DNA of 31,755 nt from Candidatus Falkowbacteria bacterium (lineage in GTDB: Bacteria; Patescibacteriota; Patescibacteriia; UBA2591; JABMQE01), in assembly GCA_013203415.1 (NCBI GenBank), contig JABMQE010000106.1:1-31755 (forward strand), given 5' to 3'. The notes below the pieces were generated by a model, which was not told the DNA's origin, did no database searches, and worked only from the letters and a program-made list of their open reading frames with translations. Of this stretch, positions 1,967-30,018 are shown piece by piece. Numbering within the stretch: position 1 is the first letter of the stretch; the number at the start of each line of letters is the position of its first letter. The translations under genes and the position numbers were made by a program.

Positions 1967-2008
1967 CCCCGCACTAATCCTCGCTACGCTCGGATAATGC
2001 GGGGCAAG
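1967..2008. repeat. CCCGC...GCGGG-CAAG palindromic element (intergenic copy)
   Basis: CCCCGCA...TGCGGGG stem with inner ATCC/GGAT, followed by CAAG. Confidence 0.65.
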
Positions 2009-2063
2009 TAGCCCGTTTAACTACCCAAAGATATAAATGGGCCCATGCGAATTATTTTTTACT

Positions 2064-3488
2064 ATGAAAAAGGCAGAAATAACATTCTCGGTGCTTCTGG
2101 TGCCGGTTGATTATTTAATGATAATATTGGCGGCTTTGTCTGCTTATTCTTTGCGTTTTTCGGACTTTTATCAATCAAGAATTAGGGAGATTGTTTTTGA
2201 GATGCCTTTTTCTGGCTATTTTCCAGTCGCTTTAGGAGTGGGAATAGTTTGGCTGGCAATATTCGGTTTGATGGGTTTATATACAATGGGCGGTAGGAAA
2301 AAGTTTATAGACGAGATTTCGAAAGTGATTGTTGGGTGCAGTGCGGGATTGGCTGTGATTACAATTTTGATATTTTTTAAGCGCGAACTTTTTGATTCGC
2401 GTTTTATTGTTTTAGGGGCCTTTGTTTTGGCGATAATTTATGTAAGTATTGGCAGGTTTATTGTTCGGAAAATTCAACAGCATTTTGTTAAGCGCGGGTA
2501 TGGGATAAATCGGTTGGTTGTTATTGGACAGGGTAAGAATGCTTTGGCTATTATTTCGGAAATTGAGAAACAGCCAGCGCTTGGTTATCGGGTGGTTAGA
2601 GTTTACGAGGAATTAAATGAGTCGGTTAGGGATAAAATCAGGAATACAGGAGGCGAGATTGATGAGTTGATTTTGGTTGATTCGGAGGTGTCACACGTGG
2701 AATCTATGAAACTTTTGGATATTTGTAATGAAAATCATATTATTTATAAATATGCGGCTGATGTTTTTAATGCGCCAATAGCGAATATCGAGATTACGAT
2801 GATGGATGCAACACCTGTGATAGAGATAAAAAGAACCCCGCTTGATGGCTGGGGCCGAGTGGTAAAAAGAATTTTTGATATTTTTGGGTCGTTGGTTTTG
2901 ATTGTGCTCTCTTCGCCGGTTATGATTATAACGGCGATTGCTATAAAGCTTGATTCCAGGGGGCCGGTGTTTTATTTAAACGAGCGGATAGGCGAGAAGG
3001 GCAGGAAGTTTGAAGCTATTAAGTTTAGGTCTATGAAGGTTGAGGATTGTGTTGGTTTTAGGTATAGTGATGAAGAAAAGGCCTTGGCTTTGGAAAAGGA
3101 ATTAATTAAGGAAAAAAATACTCGTACGGGTCCGCTTTATAAAATAAAAGAAGACCCAAGGGTAACGCGAGTGGGTCGTTTTATCCGCAAGACCTCGATA
3201 GACGAGTTGCCGCAATTTTTTAATGTTTTAAAAGGGAATATGAGTTTGGTTGGACCAAGGCCTCATCAGCCGCGAGAAGTGGATTTGTATCAAAGACATC
3301 ATAAAAATCTTCTTGGCATTAAGCCGGGAGTCAGCGGTTTGGCAGCGATTTCTGGGCGAAGTGATTTGGATTTTGAAGATGAGGCGAGATTGGATATTTA
3401 TTATGTTGAGAATTGGTCGATTAAAATAGATTTGCAAATTTTATTAAAAACACCGATGGCGGTTTTGAAAAAGAGGAAGGCGGAGTGA
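2064..3488 (+). CDS. Exopolysaccharide biosynthesis polyprenyl glycosylphosphotransferase (sugar transferase, WcaJ/WbaP-like)
   Basis: N-terminal TM helices. C-terminal KRIFDI...KFRSM...[37 protein letters not shown]. Start moved to MKKAE at 2064. Confidence 0.93.
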
Positions 3489-3507
3489 ACGTTCAAATGA
3501 ACGTTCA
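3486..3507. repeat. Two palindromic TGAACGTTCA units at 12-bp period, overlapping the stop codon
   Basis: TGAACGTTCA-AA-TGAACGTTCA. The first TGA is the stop of 2064..3488. Confidence 0.75.
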
Positions 3508-3518
3508 TTGGCGTGTTC

Positions 3519-3681
3519 AAGTTCTACCCGGCTTTAGCCGAGGGTCGCCTGCTTAAGTTCTACCCGGCTTTAGCCGAGGGTCGCCTGCTTAAGTTCTACC
3601 CGGCTTTAGCCGAGGGTCGGGTGGCTTTAGCCACATGTAGGCGACTAAAGTCGCCGAACCCTCCACTAAAGTGGGGTAGAA
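3519..3681. repeat. REP/REPIN-like cluster: 36-bp tandem x2.8 plus inverted GGCTTTAGCC-type palindromes
   Basis: AAGTTCTACCCGGCTTTAGCCGAGGGTCGCCTGCTT starts at 3519, 3555 and 3591 (third copy partial). It is followed by GTGGCTTTAGCCAC, GTAG-GCGACTAAAGTCGCC and CTCCACTAAAGTGGGGTAGAA. 3594-3681 forms an imperfect inverted repeat about ACATGT. Confidence 0.85.
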
Positions 3682-3741
3682 GGTTGTTTAATTTTCCACC
3701 CTCACGGGTGGTCAGCCGTGAGGCTGATAATTTTTGAAATT

Positions 3742-4473
3742 ATGGAAGGAGAAATAAAGAAGGAGGAAATAAAAGAGGAAATCGAGGAAGATGAGGTTTT
3801 GTTAAAAGATGACAAGGGAAAGCAAAAAGGAAAAAAGAAACCTTATAGAGAAATAATTGTTGCTATTGTTGCTATCTTAGCTTTAGTCGTTTCAATAAAA
3901 AGTTGTAAGGTATCGGAAAGGGCATTAGATAGGGCTGATGACAGTAACGAGATTTCAAAAAGAATGTTAGAGGTCAGTCAGAGGCCTTATTTGGATTTAA
4001 CTTTTAAAAAGTTTGAAGAAAATGATTCTTATTTTTTGATAGATGAAAGGAATCAAGTAATTAAAATGAAAGCTGAATTAATAAATATCGGTAATACTCC
4101 TGCGAAGAAAATTTGTGTTGGTAATGTCTATTACAACAAAGGGAATCCTGACGACCCTGAAAACGATAGGGTTATGACAGTCAAGAGGCATGGTGAGATT
4201 ACTGATTTATTGCCAAATAAGTCTATAGTTATTAACGACATAGAGCTTCCTCCATGTTGCGGTAAAAGTTTTCAAGACTTTGCTGAAGAAGTCAAAGAAC
4301 CGGGTAAATTAGAATTTGTTGTTTTTTATAATTCTGATTTAAACTCTCTTAGTCGGCCCTATAACACCGTGATAAGTCCAGATTTAGATGATGGTGAATT
4401 TTTTTATAAGCTGACGATAGACAAAGGGATAGAAATAGAGGAGAACAGTGTTTGTGGCGTATTAGATAAATAA
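3742..4473 (+). CDS. Hypothetical single-pass membrane protein
   Basis: Open frame with a charged N-terminus, one TM (IIVAIVAILALVVSI) and a soluble domain. No family recognised. Start likely MEGEIKK. Confidence 0.7.
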   Translation: MEGEIKKEEIKEEIEEDEVLLKDDKGKQKGKKKPYREIIVAIVAILALVVSIKSCKVSERALDRADDSNEISKRMLEVSQRPYLDLTFKKFEENDSYFLIDERNQVIKMKAELINIGNTPAKKICVGNVYYNKGNPDDPENDRVMTVKRHGEITDLLPNKSIVINDIELPPCCGKSFQDFAEEVKEPGKLEFVVFYNSDLNSLSRPYNTVISPDLDDGEFFYKLTIDKGIEIEENSVCGVLDK

Positions 4474-4480
4474 TAAATCG

Positions 4481-5587
4481 ATGAAAATTGCATTAGTCCA
4501 TGACCACTTAAATCAATTAGGAGGGGCAGAGAAGGTGCTTTTTGCTTTGAATGATATTTATAAAGAAGCGCCGGTTTTTACTTTGATTCATGATAAGGAG
4601 AGGAGTAATGGGATTTTTGAGAGGTTGCCTATCCAAACATCTTTTATCCAAAAAATGCCTTTTGGGGCTACGCATCTACGATGGTATTTAAGTTTGATGC
4701 CGACTGCTTTTGAGTCGTTTGATTTGGGGGGGTTTGATGTGGTTTTGTCTTCGACATCAGCTTTTTCTAAGGGAGTAATTGTGGGGCCAAATACTTTGCA
4801 TATTTGCTATTGCCATACGCCAACAAGATATCTTTGGCAGGATACGCACGAGTATGTTAGGGACTTAAAACAGAATTTTTTGATTAAGAAATTTTTGCCT
4901 TTGCTTTTAACTCGGCTTAGGCAATGGGATTTTGAGGCGGGGCAAAGGCCGGATGTTATGATAGCTAATTCTAGGAATGTTCAAAACAGAATAAAAAAAT
5001 ACTATCAAAGAGACAGCACGGTAATTTATCCGCCGGTTGAGATAGAGAATTTTGGGATTGCCGACGATCTTTCGGATTATTATTTAGCTGGGGGACGATT
5101 AGTTTCTTATAAAAGATTTGATTTGGTGGTAAAAGCATTTACTAAGACAGGAATAAAGCTAAAGATTTTTGGAACAGGGCCGGAAGAGGACAAATTAAGA
5201 AAGACGGCAGGGGAGAATGTTGAGTTTTTAGGGCATGTTTCGCAAGAAAAGAAAGCAGAATTATATAGCAAGTGCTTGGCTTTTATCCATCCGCAGGAAG
5301 AGGATTTTGGCATAACGCCGGTAGAGGCAATGGCTTCTGGCCGGCCTGTTATTGCTTATAACCGGGGCGGAGCTTTGGAAACTGTGGTAGAGGGAGTGAG
5401 CGGGACTTTTTTTGATGAGCAGATTTGGGAGGCATTGGCGGATTTGATTATTAGATTTGATCCTTATATATATAATCCTTTGGAGATTAGAAAAAGGGCA
5501 GAAAGGTTTGGAGTGGAGCGGTTTAAGCAAGAGATGCAGGAGTTTGTGGCTTTGAGGTGGAATGAGTTTGCGAGATGCGAATTGTAA
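4481..5587 (+). CDS. Glycosyltransferase family 4 (GT-B)
   Basis: MKIALVHDHL..GGAE, YCHTPTRYLW, EEDFGITPVEAMASGRPVIA. Confidence 0.93.
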   Translation: MKIALVHDHLNQLGGAEKVLFALNDIYKEAPVFTLIHDKERSNGIFERLPIQTSFIQKMPFGATHLRWYLSLMPTAFESFDLGGFDVVLSSTSAFSKGVIVGPNTLHICYCHTPTRYLWQDTHEYVRDLKQNFLIKKFLPLLLTRLRQWDFEAGQRPDVMIANSRNVQNRIKKYYQRDSTVIYPPVEIENFGIADDLSDYYLAGGRLVSYKRFDLVVKAFTKTGIKLKIFGTGPEEDKLRKTAGENVEFLGHVSQEKKAELYSKCLAFIHPQEEDFGITPVEAMASGRPVIAYNRGGALETVVEGVSGTFFDEQIWEALADLIIRFDPYIYNPLEIRKRAERFGVERFKQEMQEFVALRWNEFARCEL

Positions 5588-5626
5588 GCCTTAAGCCTTA
5601 GGCCGTAAGCTATAAGCCGTAAGCGT
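5585..5626 (+). repeat. Heptamer array (TAAGCNN)6, left flank of the four-helix-bundle gene
   Basis: TAAGCCT TAAGCCT TAGGCCG TAAGCTA TAAGCCG TAAGCGT. The first TAA is the upstream stop codon. Confidence 0.9.
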
Positions 5627-5676
5627 TTTTTAGATTTTTTGTAATATATAGTTAAAATTGGGAAGGAGGTGATATA

Positions 5677-6030
5677 ATGGAAAAGTTTCGTTCTCTTAAG
5701 GTGTGGCAAAAATCGCATTACTTAGTTTTGGAAGTTTATAAAGTTACCAGAGACTATCCGGATTTTGAGAAATTTGGTTTGGTGTCTCAGATGAGAAGAT
5801 CTTCTGTTTCTGTTGTGGCTAATATTGTTGAAGGTTCGAAGAAAGTTAGTATAAAGGATAGAAAACATTTTCATGTGATAGCCGATGCTTCATTAGAGGA
5901 GTTAAAATATTATTTTATTTTAAGTTATAATTTAAAGTATATTGATTCTGAGGTTGGGAAGAAACTTATGGAATGTGCAAGGGAGGTAGGTCGAATGCTT
6001 TCAGGATTAACTAAGTCTTTAAGTAAATAA
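5677..6030 (+). CDS. Four helix bundle protein (23S rRNA IVS protein / bAvd-like family)
   Basis: F.SLKVWQKSH.L..EVYK...YP..EKFGLVSQMRRSSVS...NIVEG signature, 117 aa, strong SD AAGGAGGTGA at 5663-5672. Confidence 0.9.
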   Translation: MEKFRSLKVWQKSHYLVLEVYKVTRDYPDFEKFGLVSQMRRSSVSVVANIVEGSKKVSIKDRKHFHVIADASLEELKYYFILSYNLKYIDSEVGKKLMECAREVGRMLSGLTKSLSK

Positions 6031-6043
6031 TTTGTCGTAAGGT

Positions 6044-6076
6044 ATGCTTACAGCTTACGGCTTATAGCTTATGGCT
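6044..6076 (-). repeat. Heptamer array (NNGCTTA)n, right flank, inverted relative to 5585-5626
   Basis: ATGCTTA CAGCTTA CGGCTTA TAGCTTA TGGCT. 6053-6071 is the exact reverse complement of 5606-5624. It overlaps the next ATG at 6071. Confidence 0.9.
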
Positions 6077-7258
6077 CGCATTGGTATAGATATTCGTTCT
6101 CTTCTTGAGGGGTATCGGACAGGGATAGGAGAGTATACGTATAATTTAATTAATGAGTTTTTGAAAAAGGATACTGAGAGTGAGTATCATCTTTTTTATA
6201 ATCAAAGGCATTCTATAAAAAAAGACCCGCCTAAGTTTGAGAGTCCTAATGTTAAAGTTTTTGATTATAAATATCCCAACAGGTGGTTTAATTTGTCGCT
6301 TAGATATTTTGGATGGCCGAGGTTGGAGAAGTTGGATGGTGAGCCTGATGTTATGTGGTATCCAAATTTTGGATTTATAAATTTTAATATTAAGGTACCG
6401 TATGTTTTAACTGTTCACGATTTGTCGTTTGAGAGGTATCCGGAGTTTTTTACCCGTCCTCATCGGTTATGGCATAAGCTTATAAATTGTCGGCGTATGG
6501 CTAGAGGCGCAACAAAGGTTATAGCTGTTTCTGAAAATACTAAGCGGGATTTGATTGAGTTGTATGGGGTGGATGAGGGAAAGATTGAGGTTGTATATGA
6601 AGGAATTGATGCGAAACTACGAAAAGAATGCGAAACTACCCGCCTCGCCAAGACGAGCTTGGCTCGTCGAGGCTGGGCGAAAATGCGAAAGGTTCAGGAA
6701 AAGTATAATTTGCCGGAGAAGTTTGTTTTGTTTTTAGGAACGATTGAGCCGAGGAAGAATATTGAGGCAGTCATTAGGGCTTTCGATAAGGCGAGTTACG
6801 AGTTCCCGAGTTACGAGTTACTATTAGCCGGTGGTAAGGGTTGGAATAATAAGGGGATTTATGAGATTCATAATAAATTGAAAAATAAAGACAAGATTCG
6901 GTTTTTAGGTTATGTAGAGCACGAGGAAAAGCCGGCTTTGTATAAATTGGCATCTTTGTTTGTTTTTCCGTCTATTTATGAAGGATTTGGTTTGCCGCCT
7001 TTGGAAGCAATGGCTTGCGGGACGCCGGTGATAACGAGTAATGCTTCGTCTTTACCCGAAGTGGTAGGGGATGCTGGTTTAATGGTTAATCCTTATAATA
7101 TAAACGAATTGGTGGAGGCGATGAAGGTGATGTTGTCTGACGCGGAGTTGAGACAGAGGTTTATAGAAAAGGGACTTGCGAGAGCGCAGAAATTTACATG
7201 GGAGAGGTGTGCGGAGAAGACGTTGGAATTAATACAGCAGATTAAAGCAGATTTTTAA
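6071..7258 (+). CDS. Glycosyltransferase family 4 (mannosyltransferase-like)
   Basis: [44 protein letters not shown]. Contains repeat-derived in-frame segments. Confidence 0.93.
6609..6694 (+). repeat. CGAAACTA-type dispersed repeat (copy 1) with nested 39-bp hairpin (6639-6677), in frame in CDS
   Basis: ATGCGAAACTACGAAAAGAATGCGAAACTA[CCCGCCTCGCCAAGACGAGCTTGGCTCGTCGAGGCTGGG]CGAAAATGCGAAAGGTT. Confidence 0.85.
6792..6820 (+). repeat. Heptamer array CGAGTT(A/C) x4 within CDS
   Basis: CGAGTTA CGAGTTC C CGAGTTA CGAGTTA, encoding SYEFPSYEL. Confidence 0.65.
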
Positions 7259-7267
7259 CGGATTTTT

Positions 7268-8392
7268 ATGAAGATAGTAATAGATGCCCGGCTTTATGGG
7301 GCAAGCAAAAATAGAGGTTTAGGCCGGTATGTGGAGCAACTGGTGAAGAACCTAGAAAAAGTGGACCATGAGAATGACTACACTGTTTTGTTGCGGCAGG
7401 AAAATTTTGATGATTATGAGCCGCAGAATTCGAGGTTTAAGAAAGTTTTGGCTGATTATCCTTGGTATTCATTTGCCGAACAGATTTTACTGCCTTGGAA
7501 ATTATGGCGGATGGATTGTGATTTAGTGCATTTTCCGCATTTTAATGTGCCAATTTTTTGCCCTCGTAAATTTGTGGTTACGATTCATGATTTAATAATG
7601 TATAAATTTCCAAACGATAAGGCGACGACTAGGAATAAGTTTTTTTATAGAACAAAATATTGGTTGCATAAATTTGTGATTAAGTCGGCGATTAGAAAGG
7701 CAAAGAAGATTATTGTTGATTGCGAGTTTACGAAACGGGATGTTATTCGAGAATTTGGAGTTGGCGAGGACAGGGTTAGAGTTATTTATTTGGGATTTGA
7801 GGTGGGTGACAAAGGCATGAGGGATGCGAATTACACGAATGTTTTAGAGAAGTATGGAATTAAGGGACAATATTTGTTGTATGTTGGGAGTGCGTATCCG
7901 CATAAGAATTTGGAAACGCTTATTAATGCTTTTGATAGGGTTAAAAAAGAGCATGGGGATTTACAATTGGTTTTGGTTGGTCGGCGGGATTATTTTTATG
8001 AGAAACTAAAAACTAGAGATGTGGTATTTACCGGTGACGTGTCGAATGGGGATTTAGCGGCGTTATATCGAAATGCATTGATTTACGTGTTTCCGTCTTT
8101 ATACGAGGGATTTGGGTTGCCAGGGCTGGAGGCGATGAGTTATGGGGTGCCGGTGATTGCGGCTAGGGCATCATGCTTGCCGGAGATTTACGGGGAGGCG
8201 GCTTTGTATTTTGAGCCAAAGAGTGGAAGTGATTTAGCAGGAAAGATCGGGCAAATTTTAGAGAGCAGTGATTTACGAGAGAATTTGGCGGCGCGAGGTT
8301 ACGATCAGATAAAAAAATATAGTTGGGAGAGTTGTGCTGTGCAAACGAAGGAAACTTATGCACATTTACGTAAGGATGAGGGTGGGGTATAA
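7268..8392 (+). CDS. Glycosyltransferase family 4
   Basis: MKIVIDAR, HFPHFNVP, TIHDL, YVGSAYPHKN, YEGFGLPGLEAMSYGVPVI. Confidence 0.93.
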   Translation: MKIVIDARLYGASKNRGLGRYVEQLVKNLEKVDHENDYTVLLRQENFDDYEPQNSRFKKVLADYPWYSFAEQILLPWKLWRMDCDLVHFPHFNVPIFCPRKFVVTIHDLIMYKFPNDKATTRNKFFYRTKYWLHKFVIKSAIRKAKKIIVDCEFTKRDVIREFGVGEDRVRVIYLGFEVGDKGMRDANYTNVLEKYGIKGQYLLYVGSAYPHKNLETLINAFDRVKKEHGDLQLVLVGRRDYFYEKLKTRDVVFTGDVSNGDLAALYRNALIYVFPSLYEGFGLPGLEAMSYGVPVIAARASCLPEIYGEAALYFEPKSGSDLAGKIGQILESSDLRENLAARGYDQIKKYSWESCAVQTKETYAHLRKDEGGV

Positions 8393-8451
8393 TTAAAATA
8401 AGAATTCATAAAATCATAAAATCACAGAATCAAATTGATTTATTGTTTTCT

Positions 8452-8488
8452 CCCGCCCGGCTTCGTTACGCGAAGCGTTGCGGGCAAG
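8452..8488. repeat. CCCGC...GCGGG-CAAG palindromic element (intergenic)
   Basis: CCCGCCCGGCTTCGTTACGCGAAGCGTTGCGGGCAAG. Confidence 0.75.
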
Positions 8489-8515
8489 TGTTTTATTGAT
8501 TTTTTGAAGTTTTCC

Positions 8516-11188
8516 ATGCCTAAAAAAACGATAGCGAAAAAAAAGAAGACCCAGGCAAAGAAAAGGCCTTCTAAAACAAAAAAAACATTAAGGCTAAAAA
8601 AGAAGAAGACAGCTTTAAGTTCGCGAGAAAAGGTTTCGGTTTCTTTCGGGCCTTCGAATGTTTTGGACAAAAAAGAAGAAAAGGAGCAGGAGTTTTTGGA
8701 AACCCGTGAAGAGCAGGCAGAGGTGCCGCAGTTTAGGGAATTAGTTTGGACTGATTTTTATAATCAAGAAAAACAGGTAGAGAGTACGAATCTTTTCCAA
8801 TCGGACAGCAGTTTGAATTTTATTTCCAGAAAAAATAAATCTTTTTCTTTTATAAATCTTTTGGCGAGTTTGCCTAAAGATTTTTTTGTTTTTTATGGGA
8901 AAAAAATAAAGATAGTATTAGGAATAACCCAGTGGACATTAGAAGAGATAGGGAAGCTTCCTTTTAGATTAATTTTGTGGATTTTAAGTTTTTTGGAGCT
9001 TTTTTTAGCACGGCCGATTTGGCATTTTCTTTTGATGATAGCAAAGAAGTTTTGGTTAAGCTTAAGGCATGTTCATGCTTATCTTTTTTGGATGATAAAA
9101 AACGGCATATTAACGATTTTTGGCTTGCCGGGGAAAACGGCCAAGTTCTTAAAACCAGCGCCAACAAATTATTGGAGCCGGGGATTAGTGTCTTTTGTTT
9201 TGGCTTGTTTGATAATTGTTTTGCCGTTTGGGACATATACTTATATAACCAAATTAAAAGATACGCAGGGCCTGGTTTTAGGGGCGGCAACACAGGCGTA
9301 TGAGCAGTTGCAAGCGGCGCAGGCGGCGACGAGCGAGCTTGATTTTGAAACAGCGGGTGAGGAATTTAGAAAGGCGGACGAAAGTTTTGGCATGGCCAAG
9401 GAGAGATTGGCGAATATTGATTTTTTGATTTCCGGGATAATTAATAATTTATCAAAAGGAAAGGCGGCAGGGAAGCTGCTTGAGACCGGAGAATTAATTT
9501 CCGAAGCAGGGGTAGAAATGAGTGAGGGGCTGGCGATTTTGAGCGAACATAATACGGATGATTTAGATGATGCCGTGTCTGGCGGCAGGCAGGTTGATAA
9601 TACAGATATGCCGATGCATGATATTGATTTGGGAGTGAGCGATAAGATTAAAATACTCGAAGACAAATTTTCTCGGGCTTACCCTAAAATAGTTTTGGCC
9701 AGGAAGAATATAGAAGAGATAGATCCAAAGATTTTGCCCGAGGCCAATCAAGATAATTTTTTTGAGATGAAGGCAAAGATTTTGGGGGTTGAGGCGGTAG
9801 CAAAAAAACTTTATTCTTTTTCAAAAATAATTTCGGAACTTTTTGCAATCGACACATCAAAAAGATATTTAGTGGTTTTCCAAAACGAGGACGAGCTTCG
9901 GCCGGCTGGAGGATTTATGGGAAGCTTTGCTTTATTAGATGTTTTGGATGGGAAAATCAGCCAGATAGAGATACCGGGCGGCGGGCCGTATGATTTTCAA
10001 GAATCTTTGGTAAAAAGAGTGGCGCCGCCAAAACCATTACAGCTAGTGAATAATCAATGGGAGATGCAGGATGCCAATTGGTTTGGCGATTTTGAAACTA
10101 CTGCAAAGAAGATAATGTGGTTTTACGAAAATTCCGGAGGCCCGACGGTCGACGGGGTTATAACAATTACTTCGGGCCTGATTCCGCCTCTTTTGGAGAT
10201 TACTGGTCCTATAGAAATGTTGGAATACGACAAAGTGATAACTGCAGATAATTTTCAAATAGAAACCCAGCTGGCTGTGGAATTGGAGTATGATAGGGAA
10301 GAGAATCGGCCAAAGCAGTTTATAGCAGATTTAACGCCTAGGTTGTTGGAAAAACTTATCAATCTAAAAAGCGACAAGCTTATAGACCTTTTAGGGGTTA
10401 TTGATTTAGGTTTGACCCGCAAAAAAATAATGTTTTATTTTGGGAATGACCAGGTGCAGGCAGAGGCGGTAGAAAATAATTGGGCCGGTAAAATTAAGCA
10501 AGTAGGGGAGGAGGATGATTTTCTTTTGGTTTTGAACGCGAATATCGGAGGGGGTAAAACAGATAACGTGATAACCCAGAAGATAGTCCACGAGACAGAG
10601 GTTTTGGAGAATGGCGAGGTAGTGGATACAGTAACAATTATTCGAACTCATGGCGGGGGGGCAGGATACTTTTTTGCCAACCGAAAGAATATTAATTATG
10701 CAAGGGTTTATGTGCCTCAAGGGAGTACTTTAATCGAGGCAAAAGGTTTTTATAATATGCCGGAAAGTTCTTTTAGGGAATTGGCTCCTGCTTTGGGCAA
10801 GGACAGCGAGTTAGAGAAAATCGAGGGACAGGTTTTGGTTGATGAGGTAACAGGGACAAGAATTACGACGGAGTTTGGGAAGACGGTTTTTGGCAACTGG
10901 ATGATTTTGAATCCAGGTGAGACAACAGTATCCAAGTTTAGATATCGTTTGCCTTATAAATTAAATTTAAGAATAGATGATGGGGAGAGATCTTTGATAT
11001 ATGCATTATTAATCCAGAAGCAGGCAGGAACAAAGGATGATGAAATAGAAAAAATAATAATTTTGCCTAAAAATTTTAATTCGGTTTGGAAATATCCAGA
11101 AGAAGATTATATAGGGGAATATGAGGGAATGGTTAAGTTTAAGTCCAATCTGGTGACAGATAGGTATTATGGGGTTGTTTTTAGGTGA
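8516..11188 (+). CDS. DUF4012-domain membrane protein
   Basis: RYLVVFQNEDELRPAGGFMGSF, DANWFGDF, DGVITI, NANIGGGKTD, NYARVYVP motifs, with a basic N-terminus and TM segment. Start reassigned to MPKKT at 8516, since the TTG extension crosses a repeat element. Confidence 0.85.
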   Translation: MPKKTIAKKKKTQAKKRPSKTKKTLRLKKKKTALSSREKVSVSFGPSNVLDKKEEKEQEFLETREEQAEVPQFRELVWTDFYNQEKQVESTNLFQSDSSLNFISRKNKSFSFINLLASLPKDFFVFYGKKIKIVLGITQWTLEEIGKLPFRLILWILSFLELFLARPIWHFLLMIAKKFWLSLRHVHAYLFWMIKNGILTIFGLPGKTAKFLKPAPTNYWSRGLVSFVLACLIIVLPFGTYTYITKLKDTQGLVLGAATQAYEQLQAAQAATSELDFETAGEEFRKADESFGMAKERLANIDFLISGIINNLSKGKAAGKLLETGELISEAGVEMSEGLAILSEHNTDDLDDAVSGGRQVDNTDMPMHDIDLGVSDKIKILEDKFSRAYPKIVLARKNIEEIDPKILPEANQDNFFEMKAKILGVEAVAKKLYSFSKIISELFAIDTSKRYLVVFQNEDELRPAGGFMGSFALLDVLDGKISQIEIPGGGPYDFQESLVKRVAPPKPLQLVNNQWEMQDANWFGDFETTAKKIMWFYENSGGPTVDGVITITSGLIPPLLEITGPIEMLEYDKVITADNFQIETQLAVELEYDREENRPKQFIADLTPRLLEKLINLKSDKLIDLLGVIDLGLTRKKIMFYFGNDQVQAEAVENNWAGKIKQVGEEDDFLLVLNANIGGGKTDNVITQKIVHETEVLENGEVVDTVTIIRTHGGGAGYFFANRKNINYARVYVPQGSTLIEAKGFYNMPESSFRELAPALGKDSELEKIEGQVLVDEVTGTRITTEFGKTVFGNWMILNPGETTVSKFRYRLPYKLNLRIDDGERSLIYALLIQKQAGTKDDEIEKIIILPKNFNSVWKYPEEDYIGEYEGMVKFKSNLVTDRYYGVVFR

Positions 11189-11275: not shown

Positions 11276-11281
11276 TATGTA

Positions 11282-11400: not shown

Positions 11401-11473
11401 ATGCGAAACTACGAAAATAATGCGAAACTACGAAAATGCGAAAGGTTGGTTAATGCGAATTTGTGAAAGGTTG
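11401..11473 (+). repeat. CGAAACTA-type dispersed repeat (copy 2, uninterrupted)
   Basis: ATGCGAAACTACGAAAATAATGCGAAACTACGAAAATGCGAAAGGTT plus a degenerate tail. Confidence 0.85.
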
Positions 11474-22168: not shown

Positions 22169-22173
22169 AGAAT

Positions 22174-22224: not shown

Positions 22225-22240
22225 TTTTATTTTGGAATTG

Positions 22241-23386
22241 TTAGTGGTAGAGTTTTTCGGTTTTTTGGACCATGTTTTGGATTGTAAATTTTTGTTCTAA
22301 AGTGTTTTTGGCGTTCTTGGAAAGGTCTTGGGCGATTTCAGGGTTTTCAATAAGATGTTCTATTTTACTGGCAATTGCTTTTGGGTCTTTTGGATTAACA
22401 AGAAGACCAGATTTATTGTTCTCTATCATTTCGGGAATAGCAGCGATATTGGTAGCAATAATAGGGGTTTTAGAAGCCATGGCTTCTAAAACAGCCCAGG
22501 GCTGGCCTTCTTTAATCGAGGGAAGGACAAAAATATCAAAAGCTTTAAGATATTGCCAAGCATCTTTTATTTTACCGGGGAGGATAACTTGGTTTTCGAG
22601 ATTTGACTCTTTTATGAGTTTTTCTAAATTTTGACGTTCAATGCCGTCGCCGATAATAACCATTGACCATTGAACATTGAGCTTTGATTTTAGTTTAGAA
22701 GCAGCTTGGATGAGGTATTCGAGTCCTTTGTTTTTATAGAAGTTGGCGATGGTGCCAATTATCATTGAACTTTGATCATTGATCATTAGTTTTTGACGGG
22801 CTTGTTCGCGGGGGAGGAAGTTGAGTTTTTCTAAATCAAGGCCATTGTAGATGGTTATTATTTTTGAAGCAGGAGCAATGCCAAATTTTATAGCGAGCTG
22901 GCGTTGGGCTTCGCAATTGTTGATGATGATATCTTTGTATTTACTAGTCCATTTTTCAGCTTTGATGTACAGCCATTTTTTCCAAAAGGGGATATCTTCG
23001 GCAAAAGCCCAGCCGCCGATGCGGTATATGACTTTCATTGACCATTGACCATTGACCATTGATCTTTTTTTTACGGCGAGGGAGCCGAGGACTCCGGTCT
23101 TGGTGGAATGGAGTTGCAAGATATCTGGTTTTGTGGTGTTTATAAGGGTTTTTAGCTCTAAATAAGCTTTTATATCTTTAACAGGATTGATGGACCTAGA
23201 TAGGTGTTTTAAGCGCCAGATATTGAAATTTTGAGCTTTAACGCGGCCTAAAAAATCACCACCAGGTCCAGCTGCTACTGTGATATCATATTTCTCTGGA
23301 TTAAGGTGAGTAATCAGCTCTAAAATATAGCGTTGGGCCCCGCCAAATTCGCTTTGAGTAATGATGTAAAGTATTTTCTTTTTCAT
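22241..23386 (-). CDS. Glycosyltransferase family 4
   Basis: KKILYIITQSEFGGAQ, LQLHSTK, FDIFVLPSIKEGQPWAVLEAMA. Start likely MKKKIL. Carries three in-frame heptamer arrays. Confidence 0.92.
   Translation of the reverse strand: MKKKILYIITQSEFGGAQRYILELITHLNPEKYDITVAAGPGGDFLGRVKAQNFNIWRLKHLSRSINPVKDIKAYLELKTLINTTKPDILQLHSTKTGVLGSLAVKKRSMVNGQWSMKVIYRIGGWAFAEDIPFWKKWLYIKAEKWTSKYKDIIINNCEAQRQLAIKFGIAPASKIITIYNGLDLEKLNFLPREQARQKLMINDQSSMIIGTIANFYKNKGLEYLIQAASKLKSKLNVQWSMVIIGDGIERQNLEKLIKESNLENQVILPGKIKDAWQYLKAFDIFVLPSIKEGQPWAVLEAMASKTPIIATNIAAIPEMIENNKSGLLVNPKDPKAIASKIEHLIENPEIAQDLSKNAKNTLEQKFTIQNMVQKTEKLYH
22659..22679 (-). repeat. In-CDS heptamer array (ACCATTG type) x3
   Basis: ACCATTG ACCATTG AACATTG, encoding NVQWSMV. 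Confidence 0.7.
22761..22788 (-). repeat. In-CDS heptamer array (ATCATTG type) x4
   Basis: ATCATTG AACTTTG ATCATTG ATCATTA, encoding LMINDQSSMI. Confidence 0.7.
23034..23061 (-). repeat. In-CDS heptamer array (ACCATTG type) x4
   Basis: TTCATTG ACCATTG ACCATTG ACCATTG, encoding SMVNGQWSM. Confidence 0.85.
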
Positions 23387-23392
23387 GAGTTT

Positions 23393-23452
23393 ATTAAACA
23401 CTAACAAGGTAATTTTGTCAATATTGACTTTTTTATACCTTTGTGCTAATTT
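23393..23452. promoter_or_regulatory. Back-to-back divergent sigma70 promoters
   Basis: GTCAATATTGAC palindrome supplies -35 TTGACA (minus, 23416-21) and TTGACT (plus, 23424-29). The -10 candidates are TTTAAT (minus) and TGcTAATTT (plus). Confidence 0.45.
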
Positions 23453-23495
23453 TTAGTAATGTTTTAAGGGGGCGAAACCTCTTATTTTTATTATT

Positions 23496-24470
23496 ATGAT
23501 TAAGAACAATTGTACAATTTTAGTCACTGGTGGAGCGGGTTTTATCGGCTATCATGTGGCAAAGAAATTACTCGACTTGGGCAACCGTGTTATTATAGTT
23601 GATAATTTTAATAATTATTATAATCCAAAATTAAAAAAGGATAGGGCAAAGCGGCTGGCAATTTATCCGAATTGTAAAATTTACAGAACAGATATCAGGG
23701 ATATCGAAGAGATGAGGAAGGTGTTTTTGGTAAACAAGATTGATAAGATAATCCATTTGGCGGCGCAAGCCGGAGTAAGATATTCTCTTAAAAATCCTTT
23801 GTTTTACGGAACGAATAATGTTCAGGCAACATTAAATTTATTGGATTTGGCAAAACAGTATAGAATTAAAAATTTTGTTTTAGCTTCGAGCTCTTCGGTT
23901 TACGGCAAACTCGAAGAGTTTCCGTCGCAAGAGGATTTTAACTTAAAAACGCCAACTTCTTTGTATGCGGCAAGTAAACAGGCCTGCGAGTTGATGGCTC
24001 ATGTTTATAATCATTTGTATGGACTTAAGATAACGGTTTTAAGATTTTTTAATGCTTACGGGCCTTGGGGCCGGCCGGATTCTGCTTTGTATATTTTTAC
24101 AGACAAGATTAGCAAGGGCGAGCCGATCGAGGTTTATAACTTTGGCAAGGCGGAAAAGGATTTTACTTATGTTGATGATATTGCAAATGGAGTGGTCTTA
24201 GCAGTGGGAAAAGAACATGATTACGAGATAATTAATTTAGGCAACGACAGGCCGATTCATTTGATGCGATATATAGAGCTGATAGAGAATGAATTAGGCA
24301 GAAAAGTAGAAAAGAAGATGATGCCGGCGATTCCAGGGGATGTGCAAAAGTCGTGTGCTGATATTACGAAGGCAAGGGAACTTTTAGGATATGAACCGAG
24401 GGTAGGTATCGAGGAAGGGATAAAGAGATTTGTAGAGTGGTATAAGAGTTATCACAAAATAAAATATTAA
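23496..24470 (+). CDS. NAD-dependent epimerase, UDP-glucuronate 4-epimerase-like
   Basis: VTGGAGFIG, HLAAQAGVRYSL, ASSSSVYG, YAASK, RFFNAYGPWGRPD, DFTYVDDI. Confidence 0.9.
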   Translation: MIKNNCTILVTGGAGFIGYHVAKKLLDLGNRVIIVDNFNNYYNPKLKKDRAKRLAIYPNCKIYRTDIRDIEEMRKVFLVNKIDKIIHLAAQAGVRYSLKNPLFYGTNNVQATLNLLDLAKQYRIKNFVLASSSSVYGKLEEFPSQEDFNLKTPTSLYAASKQACELMAHVYNHLYGLKITVLRFFNAYGPWGRPDSALYIFTDKISKGEPIEVYNFGKAEKDFTYVDDIANGVVLAVGKEHDYEIINLGNDRPIHLMRYIELIENELGRKVEKKMMPAIPGDVQKSCADITKARELLGYEPRVGIEEGIKRFVEWYKSYHKIKY

Positions 24471-24524
24471 ATATAAAAAATGAAAAACACAAACTAAAAA
24501 TAAAAAATAGTTTTTTATATTTTA

Positions 24525-24561
24525 CCCGCCTGCCAAAGCTATGCTTTGCATTGCGGGCAGG
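24525..24561. repeat. CCCGC...GCGGG-CAGG palindromic element (intergenic)
   Basis: CCCGCCTGCCAAAGCTATGCTTTGCATTGCGGGCAGG. Confidence 0.75.
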
Positions 24562-24605
24562 TATGTGTATTTCGTATTTTATCTTTCATTTTTAATTTTT
24601 AGCAG

Positions 24606-25892
24606 ATGTCTAATCAAAAAATATGCATTGTCGGCCTTGGTTATGTGGGTTTGCCTTTGGCAGCCTTGTTTTCGACAACTTATGATGTTTGTGGCTTTGA
24701 TATTAACGAAAAAAGAATAGAGGAATTAAAAAATAACAAAGATTTTACCGGCGAGGTAGAAGATTTAGAAAATTTGAATATCGAATTTACTTGCGATCCG
24801 CATAAGATTTCTCATGCGGATTTTGTGATTATAGCAGTACCAACACCGATTGATAAAGCAAAAAATCCGGATTTAGGTCCGTTAGAAAGCGCCAGCAAGA
24901 TTGTTGGAGCGAACTTGAAGGACGGAGCGGTCGTAGTTTATGAATCAACTGTTTATCCGGGCTGTACCGAGGAGATTTGTGTGCCGATTTTGGAGAGGGA
25001 GTCGGGTAAGAAATGCGGGGTTGGTTTTAAGGTTGGGTATTCACCGGAACGAGTAAATCCGGCTGATAAAGAGCATACGATCGATAAGATTATTAAAGTA
25101 GTTTCCGGGAGCGATAATGATACTTTGGAGAAACTCGCGGATTTGTATGGTTCGGTGGTAACGGCTGGTGTCCATAAAGCATCAAGCATAAAAGTGGCAG
25201 AAGCGGCAAAAATTATAGAAAATGTAAAAAGAGATTTAAATATCGCTTTGGTGAACGAGCTGGCTTTGATTTTTGAAAAGTTAGGGATTAACACCAGAGA
25301 GGTTTTGGCAGCGGCTGGGACAAAATGGAATTTTAATTCCGGAGAATATCATCCGGGAATGGTTGGCGGGCATTGCATTGGAATAGACCCGTATTATTTA
25401 ACTAGCAAGGCCTTGGAAGTTGGATATCATCCGCAGGTAATATTGGCCGGCAGGGCTATTAACGAATATATGGCGCGGCATGTGGCAGAGACGGTTGTAA
25501 AAGAATTAGGGGCTTTAGGCAAAGTTCTAAAGGATTCTTGTGTTCTTATTATGGGCTTAACATTTAAGGCGAATGTGCCGGACACAAGAAACAGCCAATC
25601 CAAGCGAGTGATAGAGTATTTGCGCGAGTTTGGTTTAGGTGTTTTGGCTTTTGAGCCGCTTCTCCCAAATGATGCCGTAGAAGAGGGATTTGGAGTGAAA
25701 AATATTGATTTAGAGAAGGCGGGCAAGGAATTTGATGCAATGATTATTTTTAGTCCGCATGATAAGTTTAAGAAATATGATTTAGGAGTTTTGAAAAACA
25801 AGATGAAAGAGAATCCGGTGCTTATGGATATTTATGAATTTTATTCGAAAAAGGAGGCCGAAGACAAAGGTTTTATTTACAGATGTCTATAA
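24606..25892 (+). CDS. Nucleotide-sugar (UDP-GlcNAc/GalNAc) dehydrogenase, WbpO/TviB-like
   Basis: VGLGYVGLP, AVPTP, YESTVYPG, YSPER.NP, GMVGGHCIGIDP, MGLTFKANVPD.RNS. Confidence 0.92.
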   Translation: MSNQKICIVGLGYVGLPLAALFSTTYDVCGFDINEKRIEELKNNKDFTGEVEDLENLNIEFTCDPHKISHADFVIIAVPTPIDKAKNPDLGPLESASKIVGANLKDGAVVVYESTVYPGCTEEICVPILERESGKKCGVGFKVGYSPERVNPADKEHTIDKIIKVVSGSDNDTLEKLADLYGSVVTAGVHKASSIKVAEAAKIIENVKRDLNIALVNELALIFEKLGINTREVLAAAGTKWNFNSGEYHPGMVGGHCIGIDPYYLTSKALEVGYHPQVILAGRAINEYMARHVAETVVKELGALGKVLKDSCVLIMGLTFKANVPDTRNSQSKRVIEYLREFGLGVLAFEPLLPNDAVEEGFGVKNIDLEKAGKEFDAMIIFSPHDKFKKYDLGVLKNKMKENPVLMDIYEFYSKKEAEDKGFIYRCL

Positions 25893-26017
25893 TGTTTTTT
25901 ACTTGACTTTTGATAAAGATAGTAGTAACATATAAGTATAATTTAGATTACTTTTTTAAATAAGACTTTTGCCAATTTTAGAAGAATGTGGTGTGGTCTT
26001 ATTTTTTATTTATATTA

Positions 26018-26064
26018 ATACGAAACTACGAAAAGCATGCGAAACTACGAACATGCGAAAGGTT
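26018..26064 (+). repeat. CGAAACTA-type dispersed repeat (copy 3)
   Basis: ATACGAAACTACGAAAAGCATGCGAAACTACGAACATGCGAAAGGTT. Confidence 0.85.
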
Positions 26065-26169
26065 TTTTCTGCTAGTTTTAGTGTAAAGTATAATAAAACC
26101 AAGATCCACGAATGATATCCTAATCTACAAATGCTACGAATTTTGCGAGTGGATATGATAATTATTTAT

Positions 26170-27123
26170 ATGACTAATACAAAAAAAACAATTTTAGTTA
26201 CTGGAGGGGCGGGGTTTGTGGGGTCGCATTTGTGCGAGAGATTGCTTTCTTGTGGAAATGAGGTTATTTGCCTTGATAATTTTTATACTGGTTCAAAAGA
26301 GAATATAAAGCATCTTTTAGAAAACAAGAATTTTGAGTTGATTAGGCATAATATTAATTTTCCGATTTCTTTGGAAGTAGACCAGATTTATAACTTGGCT
26401 TGTCCAGCGGCTCCGCCTCATTATCAAAACGATCCGATAGAGACCACAAAAACGTGCGTGACTGGAGTAATTAATATGTTGGGGCTGGCTAAGAGGACAG
26501 GGGCTAGGATTTTGCAGGCCTCGACTTCGGAAATTTACGGCGATCCAAAAGAGCATCCGCAAAAAGAAAATTATTTTGGGAATGTTAATTCTTTGGGACC
26601 AAGGGCTTGTTACGACGAAGGAAAAAGATGCGCCGAGACATTATTTATGGATTACTCGCGGCAGCATGATTTAGATATAAGGATTGTTAGGATTTTTAAT
26701 ACTTTTGGGCCGAGGATGGCTCTTAATGACGGGAGGGTGGTTTCGAATTTTATTATCGCGGCTTTGAAGGGCGAACCAATAACGATTTACGGCGAGGGGA
26801 ACCAGACAAGGAGTTTTCAGTATGTTGATGATTTAATAGAAGGGATGATAAAGATGATGGAGCAGGATGATTTTATCGGGCCGGTTAATCTTGGCAATCC
26901 GAATGAGAAAAGCATTCGGGAGTTGGCTGGAAAAATTATCGGTTTAACTGATTCCCATTCAAAAGTGGTATTTAAGGAATTGCCAAAAGATGATCCAATA
27001 AGAAGAAAGCCGGATATTAGTTTGGCTTGGGAAAAATTAGCTTGGGAGCCGAAGATAGGACTCGAGCAGGGACTTGGCAGGACTATTGAGTATTTTCGAA
27101 ATAAAATCACTAATTTACACTAA
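26170..27123 (+). CDS. UDP-glucuronate decarboxylase (UDP-xylose synthase)
   Basis: [57 protein letters not shown]. Start likely MTNTK. Confidence 0.93.
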
Positions 27124-27144
27124 TCTACCACTAATTTCACTAAT
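27108..27144 (+). repeat. CACTAAT array (4 units, 9-11-bp period) overlapping the stop codon
   Basis: CACTAAT at 27108, 27118, 27129 and 27138. Confidence 0.75.
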
Positions 27145-27174
27145 CACGAATAGTTTTGGGGTTTTAATAAAATT

Positions 27175-28398
27175 ATGAATGAAATAAAACGACTAAAAAT
27201 ATTAATATTCTCAATTGCATATTTTCCACATGTGGGCGGAGCAGAAGTGGCGATACGGGAAATAACTGACAGGATTAGAGACATGGAGTTCGACATGGTG
27301 ACTTTAAGGTTGGATAAAAATGACGCCCGCCCAGATTCGCCTGACGGCGAAATTGATGGCGGGCAGGCGAAAAGCGAGAGAATCGGCAATGTTAATGTTT
27401 ATCGGATTGATTGTCCTAAGGTTTTGTTTCCGTTTTATGCGGCTAAAAAAGGCAAGGAATTGCATGGGGCTAGAGAATACGGGGTTGTTTGGAGTATGAT
27501 GGCGAATTTGGCTGGTTTGGCCGGGCTTTTGTTACGTAGCATGCTACGTAACAAGCTACGTAACAAACCCCGCCTACGCCAAGGCTTCGGCGGGCAGGCT
27601 AAGTTTTTGTTAACTTTGCAGACGGGTAATGATGATAAAAAGGTTTGGAAAAGAACTTGGTGGTGGCGGCCTATTTATAAAATGATATATAGGAAAGCGG
27701 ACTATATTCAGGCGATTAGTAATTATTTGGGTGAACGAGCTAGAAAGATGAAGGTGAAGTGCCCGATAGATTTGATTCCTAACGGCGTTGATTTAACTAA
27801 GTTTTATCCTGCAGACAATCGATTACAAATACGGTCAGAGTTGGGGATACCCAATATAACGTCTGACGATAAAATTGTGATTACCACCTCACGATTAGTA
27901 GAGAAGAATGGAGTTGAGTATTTAATACGGGCAATGGTTGATACATACACAAATACGAAACTGTTGATTTTGGGTTCTGGGGAGTTGGAGGGTCAGTTAA
28001 AGAGTTTGACAAAAGAGTTGGGATTAGAGAATAGAGTAATTTTTTTAGGTCAAGTTGATTATGACAATATCCCGAAGTATTTACGAGCTTCGGACGTATT
28101 TTGTCGCCCTTCACTAAGCGAGGGTTTGGGCAGCTCTTTTTTAGAGGCAATGGCTTGCGGTTTGCCAATAATCGGGACTAGGGTCGGTGGTATCCCCGAC
28201 ATCTTAAGCGACGGAATAAATGGTTTGTATTGCGAGGTGAAAAATCCAGAAAGCATTAACGATAAAATAAAAATGTTATTAAATAATAAACAGTTACACG
28301 AGAAATTGAGTTCTGCTGCAGCAAAACATGTTCAGGGAATTTATAACTGGGAATATATTGCTATAGAGATGAGTGAGATATTTAAAAAATTAGTTTAA
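27175..28398 (+). CDS. Glycosyltransferase family 4 with two in-frame palindromic insertions
   Basis: YFPHVGGAE, LIPNGVD, TSRLVEKNGV, RPSLSEGLGSSFLEAMACG. Confidence 0.92.
   Translation: MNEIKRLKILIFSIAYFPHVGGAEVAIREITDRIRDMEFDMVTLRLDKNDARPDSPDGEIDGGQAKSERIGNVNVYRIDCPKVLFPFYAAKKGKELHGAREYGVVWSMMANLAGLAGLLLRSMLRNKLRNKPRLRQGFGGQAKFLLTLQTGNDDKKVWKRTWWWRPIYKMIYRKADYIQAISNYLGERARKMKVKCPIDLIPNGVDLTKFYPADNRLQIRSELGIPNITSDDKIVITTSRLVEKNGVEYLIRAMVDTYTNTKLLILGSGELEGQLKSLTKELGLENRVIFLGQVDYDNIPKYLRASDVFCRPSLSEGLGSSFLEAMACGLPIIGTRVGGIPDILSDGINGLYCEVKNPESINDKIKMLLNNKQLHEKLSSAAAKHVQGIYNWEYIAIEMSEIFKKLV
27326..27367. repeat. 42-bp CCCGCC...GGCGGG-CAGG element, in frame
   Basis: Removal restores GAC GCG AAA AGC (KNDAKSERIG). 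Confidence 0.85.
27531..27564. repeat. 12-bp-period ACGT-centred palindromic array within CDS
   Basis: GTTACGTAGCATGCTACGTAAC (22-bp perfect palindrome) + AAGCTACGTAAC. Confidence 0.75.
27569..27598. repeat. 30-bp CCCGCC...GGCGGG-CAGG element, in frame
   Basis: CCCGCCTACGCCAAGGCTTCGGCGGGCAGG. Removal restores AAC AAA CCT AAG TTT (NKPKF). Confidence 0.85.
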
Positions 28399-28406
28399 GC
28401 GTTAAT

Positions 28407-28503
28407 TTACCCCCTCTTTAATTCTCCCCCTTGGTAAGGGGGAGATAGCGGTCAAATTCGTTATCCTCCCCTTTATAAGGGGAGGAAAGGAAGGAGGGGT
28501 AAA
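28407..28503. repeat. CCCCTT-NNN-AAGGGG palindrome doublet enclosed by an outer stem
   Basis: TCTCCCCCTTGGTAAGGGGGAGA (28423-45) and TCCTCCCCTTTATAAGGGGAGGA (28464-86), with outer TTTACCCC/GGGGTAAA. Confidence 0.8.
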
Positions 28504-28536
28504 AAAGATGATGGCTTAGGAAATGATACAAACATT

Positions 28537-29961
28537 ATGATTAGTTTAGTTAAAATAAATTATACCCAAGACCATTCACAGCATATTTTACCTTTGGGGA
28601 TTTTATCGGTTGGAAGCGCGTTAAAGCGGGCAGGTTTTAAGGTTAAGCTTTCTAATATAAACGAGAAGCAGATAAGCGCTTTGGTCCACGAGCTGGCTTT
28701 GATGAAACCTTTGTATGTTGGCTTGTCGGTGATGACAGGGATTCAGACAAAGCATGCAGTAGAGTTTTCGAAATTTTTGAAGGAAAAGGCGCCGGAGATA
28801 AAAATTGTTTGGGGCGGGATTCACCCTTCTTTACTTAGCGAGCAATGCTTAAGGGAAGATTATGTTGATTATGTGATGATAGGCGAGGGCGAGGTGACTT
28901 CGGTTGAGTTTGCGCAAGCTCTTTCTGGCGGTGATGATTTAAGCAAAGTGAAAGGATTAGGTTTTAAGCTGGATGGTGAATTAGTATTTAACGAAGAAAG
29001 ACCGTTTATTAACGATTTAGATGAGTATCCGATTGATTGGGGTTTGGTTGATTTGGAAAAATATATTTATCCGCTGGCAGGATACAAAAGGGTGATTGCC
29101 TATAAATCGAGCCGGGGCTGTCCGTTTGACTGCGGTTTCTGTTATAACCGGATTTTTAATAAAAATACCTGGCGGACTTGGTCGGTGGAACAGGTGGTGC
29201 GGGACATTAATTTTTTAAAAAAGGAATACAAGGTAGAGGCGATAAAGTTTTATGATGATAATTTTTTTGTAAATAAGGACAGGGCGTTAGAAATTCTTGA
29301 AGGAATAAAAATGCCGGCCCATTTTGAAGTGCGGATTGATGCTGTTACAGAGGAACTGGCCAGAAAGCTAAAAGAGTATCAGGCGTTCGACCTTTTGATT
29401 GGAGTTGAAAGCGGAAGCGATAGGATTCTTAAGATGCTAAACAAAAGAATAACAGTCGATGATATTAAAAAAGCAGCTAAGATTTTAGGTAAGTATGATT
29501 TGCGGGCGACTTATTCGACAATTGTCGGCGTGCCAACAGAAACAAAGGAAGAGTTCGAGAAAACCATTGATTTGATGTATGAGCTTTATAAAATCCATCC
29601 AAAAGCGGTTTTTACTCTTGGAGCATATATGCCGTATCCTGGAAGCAAGCTTTATGATTTTTGCCTAGAACATGGTTTTAGGCCGCCAAAGACAACAGAA
29701 GGATGGGGAAATATAGATAGGTTTCGGCCGGATTTTAAGAACCCATGGGCTGATGGGAAAAGGGTTTGGATTATTCGGGAATATTTTAAGCTTCTAAAGT
29801 TTAGGTTGGGGCCGGTTAACAGATGGTTTGAGTGGCGGATAAAACATAGATTTTTTGCTTTGCCTTTGGATATATATGTAATTGAGTATTTAAGCGGGTT
29901 GGGGATTGAAGGAAAGGGGCCATTAGGGAAATTAATTAGAAAAGTTTATAAAAAAAGTTAA
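28537..29961 (+). CDS. B12-binding domain radical SAM protein
   Basis: PLGILSVGS, VGLSVMTG, VWGGIHPS, GEGE, SRGCPFDCGFC (CX3CX2C), DDNF, GVESGS. Confidence 0.92.
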   Translation: MISLVKINYTQDHSQHILPLGILSVGSALKRAGFKVKLSNINEKQISALVHELALMKPLYVGLSVMTGIQTKHAVEFSKFLKEKAPEIKIVWGGIHPSLLSEQCLREDYVDYVMIGEGEVTSVEFAQALSGGDDLSKVKGLGFKLDGELVFNEERPFINDLDEYPIDWGLVDLEKYIYPLAGYKRVIAYKSSRGCPFDCGFCYNRIFNKNTWRTWSVEQVVRDINFLKKEYKVEAIKFYDDNFFVNKDRALEILEGIKMPAHFEVRIDAVTEELARKLKEYQAFDLLIGVESGSDRILKMLNKRITVDDIKKAAKILGKYDLRATYSTIVGVPTETKEEFEKTIDLMYELYKIHPKAVFTLGAYMPYPGSKLYDFCLEHGFRPPKTTEGWGNIDRFRPDFKNPWADGKRVWIIREYFKLLKFRLGPVNRWFEWRIKHRFFALPLDIYVIEYLSGLGIEGKGPLGKLIRKVYKKS

Positions 29962-30018
29962 TACGAAACTACCCGCCTCGACGAGTCAAGACTCGTCTTG
30001 GCGAGGCGGGCGAAAATT

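Follow-up and report, generated by a model that had tools for sequence, protein, structure and literature searches.

REP/SDR-like miniature hairpins with a CARG tail in a Candidatus Falkowbacteria genome and in other bacterial phyla

A 31,755-nucleotide (nt) stretch of the Candidatus Falkowbacteria bacterium assembly GCA_013203415.1 (contig JABMQE010000106.1, here contig C100 of assembly G000 and referred to throughout as the window) carries seven short GC-rich hairpins, five of which end in a CAAG or CAGG tail. We analyzed these hairpins together with the rest of the assembly (1.03 Mb, 142 contigs, 40.5% GC), related genomes of the same order, and genomes of other phyla. The family is a miniature mobile hairpin that resembles both repetitive extragenic palindromic (REP) sequences and the small dispersed repeats (SDRs) of Nostoc and that carries a new tail tag. 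The whole unit, including the tail, is inserted at a single phosphodiester bond without duplication of the target. On balance, we judge that the copies probably represent a superfamily of nonautonomous insertion elements, miniature GC-rich hairpins of 20 to 42 nt, in a small genome that is AT-rich. No description of the family was found in the literature searched by sequence string and by topic.

The insertion of these units can be read at a dispersed repeat, ATGCGAAACTACGAAAA(TGCGAAA), for which the genome contains 52 core sites with TGCGAAACTA. Sixteen of the 52 ATGCGAAACTA^CGAAA sites are filled at one bond (ACTA^CGAAA) by at least six different hairpins, without duplication, and the others are empty. 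The inserts include a 39-nt type in either orientation, the 39-nt type with a nested 21-nt insert, a 42-nt type, a 20-nt perfect palindrome, a 24-nt CAGG-tailed hairpin, and a 30-nt hairpin. Every one of them has CC at its start and GG at its end, which fixes the boundaries of the unit and makes the tail a part of what is inserted. Insertion is mostly just 5′ of a C, often TA^CG in this genome, and the units have landed between genes, in other repeats, and in one another. Such nesting is seen on contigs C12, C50, and C84, where a 39-nt unit together with its CAGG tail interrupts a 42-nt unit. The dispersed repeat, a hot spot for hairpin insertion that is often located at gene starts and ends, occurs in the window at positions 6610 to 6638, 11402 to 11445, 26038 to 26060, and 30020 to 30045.

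Comparison with orthologues supports the same conclusion for copies inside genes. Every copy seen in a gene is a multiple of three in length, and translation runs through it to give a short loop peptide. Orthologues of the glycosyltransferase at 27175 to 28398 in related genomes are 47 to 62% identical to it; relative to those of G001 and G012, the copy at 27569 is a clean 10-residue insertion, and the 42-nt copy at 27326 falls in a region of the glycosyltransferase that varies between orthologues. Outside the window, the uvrC gene (C67:1319-3187, locus L189) contains at least five short peptide segments derived from GC hairpins. One of them, 14 residues long, corresponds exactly to a 42-nt unit (C67:1685-1726), another unit occupies a variable linker, and three more segments also stem from GC hairpins. 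Of these five, four are cleanly absent from the G001 orthologue, which is 65% identical and has different inserts of its own.

All seven hairpins listed for the window in an earlier note, which had been made from the letters of the stretch, were recovered where it had placed them (all on the + strand; gene boundaries are crude open reading frame [ORF] calls). Every copy folds as a hairpin, with energies between −14 and −26 kcal/mol (z, −1.2 to −4.0). Three intergenic copies belong to a 37- to 41-nt subfamily with a central GCTAYGC loop. The first of these (1967 to 2008), between the ORFs at 293 to 1873 and 2037 to 3488, consists of a hairpin with the arms CCCCGCA...TGCGGGG (1967 to 2004; central loop GCTACGC; dG, −15.2) and a CAAG tail (2005 to 2008). 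The other two each have a 33-nt hairpin, followed by CAAG at 8452 to 8488 (loop TTACG; dG, −19.6; z, −3.2) and by CAGG at 24525 to 24561 (loop CTATG; dG, −16.8; z, −2.9). Two in-frame copies share one GT4 glycosyltransferase gene (27175 to 28398), a 42-nt copy of type B at 27326 to 27367 and a 30-nt copy of type A at 27569 to 27598 that adds about 10 residues, and both lengths include the CAGG tail. Directly 5′ of the latter, a 12-nt-period, ACGT-centered array (27530 to 27568) gives the glycosyltransferase about 6 residues more than its orthologues have. The remaining two copies are untailed 39-nt hairpins of type D in opposite orientations. The minus-oriented copy (6639 to 6677) lies in frame in another GT4 glycosyltransferase gene (6071 to 7258), where it occupies the ACTA^CGAAA point in a dispersed ATGCGAAACTA repeat; positions 6610 to 6638 hold two units of the ATGCGAAACTACGAAAA repeat, the second of which is the insertion target, and the repeat resumes at 6678. 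The same insert is found at the same point on contigs C112 and C135. The plus-oriented copy (29972 to 30010) also occupies the ACTA^CGAAA point, and inserts identical to it are found on C4 and C18. It lies between genes, the next gene most likely starting at the ATG at 30019, an in-frame codon of the ORF that yields a complete glycosyltransferase match.

The tails and lengths given in the earlier note agree with these results: CAAG or CAGG stands directly 3′ of the stem in five copies (1967, 8452, 24525, 27326, and 27569) and is lacking at 6639 and 29972, the genic copies measure 39, 42, and 30 nt, and the intergenic copies at 8452 and 24525 measure 37 nt. The exact pattern CCCGC-N15-40-GCGGG matches six copies, against 0.13 expected from dinucleotide shuffles of the window, and misses the copy at 6639 to 6677 because of one extra T in its 3′ arm; the arms at 1967 are the longer CCCCGCA/TGCGGGG. 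The statement that the interiors, apart from the 6639/29972 pair, are unrelated has to be replaced: they sort the copies into subfamilies, which are encountered repeatedly in G000 and in other genomes as well.

Genome-wide, the strict pattern with a CARG tail yields 20 copies in the 1.03 Mb of G000 versus 0 for a reversed control, which bears out the further copies that the earlier reading called for. These counts are lower bounds because copies concentrate at contig ends, where they are enriched about 5-fold (9 within 100 nt versus 1.65 expected). A looser census of hairpins followed by CARG was too noisy (169 matches versus 62 to 135 for control tails), and the strict pattern was kept. Among 9-mers, GCGGGCAGG is present 50 times and GCGGGCAAG 26 times, with seven sibling 9-mers at 3 to 12 copies each. 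Classified by interior, the subfamilies comprise, besides the 37- to 41-nt group, the 30-nt type (27569), the 42-nt type (27326), the 39-nt type that is nested in the 42-nt type, and the untailed 39-nt type (6639 and 29972). Type B 42-nt copies other than that at 27326 are located on C20, C110, C138, C82, and C116, and one more is in genome G001. The CARG tail is also found on other hairpins with different stems.

The common anatomy is a constant CCCGCC/GGCGGG clamp around a subfamily-specific inner hairpin, with a 3′ CARG tail in most subfamilies, and the fold is maintained by compensatory change. At positions 12/15 of the 30-mer, 152 copies have C-G in 101 cases, T-A in 37, T.G in 6, and C.A in 3, with both the C-G and the T-A versions present in high-GC as well as low-GC hosts. 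The three-helix hairpin of the 42-nt type is likewise preserved via compensatory changes. Conservation of the tag in larger alignments, which the earlier note had made a test of its reading, is borne out: CARG persists, and the base that follows it is C in 97 of 124 copies (CCCGC comes next in 12 of 124), while the 5′ flank lacks conservation. Copies are mostly singlets or head-to-tail tandems. At one locus, L072 in a Saprospiraceae metagenome-assembled genome, at least seven head-to-tail copies of the 30-mer are separated by a constant 8-nt spacer. Many copies interrupt tandem arrays with a 7- to 8-nt period. Several others directly adjoin tRNA-Gly or tRNA-Pro genes at their 5′ end (L030, L080, L095, L071, L102, and L149); there the tRNA begins with bases of the unit's own GCGGG arm, another GCGGG is located upstream, and the units thus look like insertions at GCGGG.

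The strict pattern has matches in 18 of the 41 genomes from this order, which are 0.5 to 1.3 Mb in size. The 30-mer has a far wider range. A scan of one genome per species, with six free positions, recovered it nearly unchanged in at least 120 genomic DNA stretches from more than 10 phyla, with host GC contents of 31 to 75%. Its hosts include many Patescibacteria as well as Acidobacteriota, Verrucomicrobiota, Planctomycetota, Bacteroidota (including the isolate Niastella soli), Chloroflexia, Proteobacteria, Nitrospirae, Armatimonadota, and others. Large genomes have one to a few copies each, and 27 viral contigs of IMG/VR also carry the 30-mer.

These observations suggest a route by which the elements may have spread. 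The unit would travel as single-stranded DNA in its folded form, a DNA enzyme that acts on one strand and is encoded elsewhere could cut and rejoin it in trans, and phages or other vectors may transfer units between lineages. As the enzyme we tentatively propose an HUH Y1 transposase of the IS200/RAYT kind (RAYT, REP-associated tyrosine transposase), serving in trans and not as one half of a classical REP-RAYT pair; this identification is possible, and we would not yet call it probable. The earlier note had assumed a transposase outside the window and had suggested looking for a Y1 gene flanked by the elements. Five Y1 (PF01797) ORFs are indeed present on G000 contigs C71, C43, C50, C103, and C111, all outside the window and closer to REP-associated tyrosine transposases than to IS200. 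The flanking association did not materialize. The C103 Y1 ORF is followed, 80 nt downstream, by a related CCTG-CCCGCC hairpin. The Y1 protein type shared by C103 and C111 was considered as the partner and rejected, as it has no close homologue among 40 relatives. A search of G000 for a Y2 transposase and for TnpB gave no match, the Y2 negative being weak because its control matched nowhere.

The orientation of the copies has a bearing on such a route. The window holds a polysaccharide gene cluster that includes several GT4 glycosyltransferases; almost all of its genes lie on the + strand, and its GC skew is about +0.3. Across G000, 41 of the 45 scorable copies of three tailed families have the tail on the G-rich strand (41:4), and where gene strand and skew conflict, the tailed strand goes with the skew (12:3). 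The CARG word alone, which is a fair null because the hairpins are symmetric, is on the G-rich strand in 57.6% of cases, and relative to this null the bias has a P value of 8e-7. We regard this as a hint of a replication-coupled single-strand step, not as a result. The dispersed ATGCGAAACTACGAAAA repeat also sides with the G-rich strand (42:7) despite its equal G and C counts.

Several findings weigh against mobility by a trans-acting enzyme of this kind. Permuted G-rich 9-mers lie on the G-rich strand in 86.5% of cases, and 41:4 is not significant relative to this null; the bias also fails to replicate in the relatives (16:20) and is weak across phyla (43:21). The family flanks no Y1 gene, and only one of the five G000 ORFs, that on C103, has a related hairpin nearby. 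Across the 41 genomes, co-occurrence of copies with Y1 genes and with small GIY-YIG genes is weak (Fisher P values of 0.06 and 0.075), and genome size is the better correlate (rho = 0.48). At the 120 loci examined in other phyla, no recurrent neighbor gene was found, the largest cluster comprising 8 loci. The preferred flank is 3′ of the element here versus 5′ in IS608, and some copies share flanks, so that their events are non-independent. A wider formulation, which we likewise regard as possible and hold with reserve, is that the units are pan-bacterial hairpin “nano-elements” of about 30 nt, near-identical in more than 10 phyla and in phages, and inserted precisely and without duplication by an unrecognized single-stranded-DNA enzyme in trans that is neither a RAYT nor an Ssn protein.

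An alternative is a classical REP/REPIN-RAYT system, in which a domesticated, genome-encoded RAYT recognizes tag and hairpin and disperses the repeats. Tagged REPs and REPINs are imperfect palindromes, rich in GC, whose foot carries the tetranucleotide GTAG or CGTC and which are mobilized by RAYT transposases (PMC3733652; PMC3116915). The family shares with them the short GC-rich palindrome, the tetranucleotide beside the stem, the dispersed and sometimes genic copies, and Y1 genes in the genome. All five G000 Y1 ORFs match the NCBIfam model for REP-associated tyrosine transposases (NF047646), the one on C71 above the cutoff (93.8 bits versus 80); all seven genomes of the order with at least four copies have a Y1 gene; and the hairpin near the C103 ORF would fit as well. 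True REP-RAYT pairs in the same order nevertheless look different. In G017, G020, G035, and G036 (L193, L195, L201, and L202), a clade of RAYTs of 204 to 208 amino acids (aa) is bracketed by the GGGGACWGTCCCC palindrome, which has 2 to 14 copies in exactly the four genomes with this clade and none in G000, and this pair served as a positive control for REP-RAYT adjacency in the order. Other RAYT clades of the relatives have other cognate palindromes, and each of 12 RAYT-like loci is bracketed by its own, different multicopy palindromes and never by the CARG-tailed family. Copies are also present without a Y1 gene in G003 and G031, which are assembled in 2 and 3 contigs, respectively, four to five Y1 genes are present without copies (G009 and G038), and the Fisher P value for co-occurrence given above is 0.06. 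The tag, CARG at the 3′ foot (CYTG when read on the opposite strand), differs from both GTAG and CGTC, and PMC3733652 contains neither CARG nor CYTG. Finally, the family occurs as singlets or head-to-tail tandems, and the near-identity of the 30-mer across phyla is unlike the lineage-specific, vertically inherited REPINs. We therefore consider this model unlikely. The tagged REP-like class proposed in the earlier note stands as to its dispersed, tagged hairpin architecture; the link to a RAYT does not, adjacency being absent and the tag a different one.

Less likely still is a model in which small Ssn-like GIY-YIG nucleases recognize these hairpins, which would spread by cutting and host repair. 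Ssn GIY-YIG proteins are hairpin-specific single-strand nucleases (Chenal 2025, PMC11893778), and their NTS/SRM hairpins are recognized as single-stranded DNA and are proposed to spread by nuclease cutting and host repair, with a 5′ HGTC tag in the SRM consensus (PMC11893778). The Neisseria NTS resembles our family in its CCCGC/GCGGG-type stem and 3′ CYRG tail, and small GIY-YIG genes are abundant in the order: G000 has two such ORFs (84 and 88 aa) beside tRNA genes on C20 and C81, and relatives (G003, G006, G020, and others; L142 to L161) have up to 17 genes of about 85 to 120 aa per 1-Mb genome, most of them lodged beside a tRNA gene or within a duplicated one. In three independent cases among the relatives, a copy lies 40 to 250 nt from such a gene, a proximity that is confounded, as both features are found at tRNA genes. 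In G000, however, CARG-tailed copies are not adjacent to either GIY-YIG gene, and other hairpins flank both. G017 has seven copies and no match to the GIY-YIG query, and only 1 of the 120 loci examined in other phyla has a GIY-YIG gene within 8 kb. The 5′ GTC tag of the SRM consensus is absent and the 5′ flank of the element is unconserved, and precise insertion is not explained by a nuclease alone. At the far end of the scale, we regard it as highly improbable that the hairpins are selected host sequences, such as terminators or mRNA-stabilizing or mRNA-processing hairpins, and not mobile DNA. This would be consistent with the stem covariation and with the position of the three window copies whose length is not a multiple of three, all of which lie 55 to 95 nt past a stop codon between codirectional genes. 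These copies (1967, 8452, and 24525) nevertheless have no T-run after the stem and are not terminator-like by scan, on which grounds we rejected the terminator reading, and Rfam gave no match in the window. Units also occur inside repeats and in both orientations at one target; a purely functional reading is insufficient because of the in-frame genic copies, the nesting, and the orthologous sites without copies.

Mobility as a miniature insertion element also invites comparison with other systems. Members of IS200/IS605, such as IS608 and ISDra2, transpose as single strands without target duplication, have hairpin ends and a short preferred flank 5′ of the element, and may show a lagging-strand-template bias. 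Insertion of the CARG-tailed family likewise leaves the target unduplicated and favors a short adjacent sequence (the +1 C), but this flank is 3′, the unit contains no transposase, one hairpin would have to serve both ends, and the strand bias is seen in G000 alone. Rickettsia palindromic elements are selfish sequences of 100 to 150 bp that sit in frame in working genes and are restricted to their lineage; the in-frame selfish palindrome is the likeness, whereas the units of our family are 20 to 42 nt long and found in many phyla. The SDRs of Nostoc are reportedly very small, nested elements with a variable hairpin core between constant ends and with in-frame genic copies. By that description, they share with the family its tiny size, its nesting, its entry into 7- to 8-nt tandem arrays, its constant ends, and its in-frame genic copies. 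They have reportedly been described for cyanobacteria, whereas no cyanobacterium is among the 30-mer matches of the family listed. In architecture, the closest known elements are the tagged REPs, and in behavior, the SDRs of Nostoc as reportedly described.

Other features of the window and the genome are distinct from the family. A canonical intrinsic terminator (1890 to 1919; 13-bp stem and T-run) ends the gene at 293 to 1873 and is separate from the element at 1967. Another family, roughly 72 nt long and with the arms ACCCCGCACC...GGTGCGGGGT, occurs on four G000 contigs (C8:3814, C62:2696, C64:2291, and C71:11142), and on C50 and C43 shorter relatives of it are located upstream of the Y1 ORF. 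The G000 contigs of >5 kb fall into two classes, one with a strongly G-rich coding strand (skew, 0.3 to 0.4) and one with a C-rich coding strand (skew, −0.1 to −0.25), which reflects either long lagging-strand gene blocks under strong replication skew or a mixed bin.

The elements have a practical side, in that they break assemblies at the contig ends where they are enriched. The shared target bond and the clean boundaries provide exact substrates for a biochemical search for the enzyme. If the elements are still mobile, as little as 30 nt of DNA is enough for a mobile element that crosses phyla, genes such as uvrC in streamlined genomes of 1 Mb can repeatedly absorb in-frame insertions, and a part of the “low-complexity” peptides in proteins of uncultured bacteria is selfish DNA translated by ribosomes. 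Should the nano-element reading prove true, these hairpins would be among the smallest mobile DNAs known, steadily adding in-frame loops to essential genes in ultra-small bacteria.

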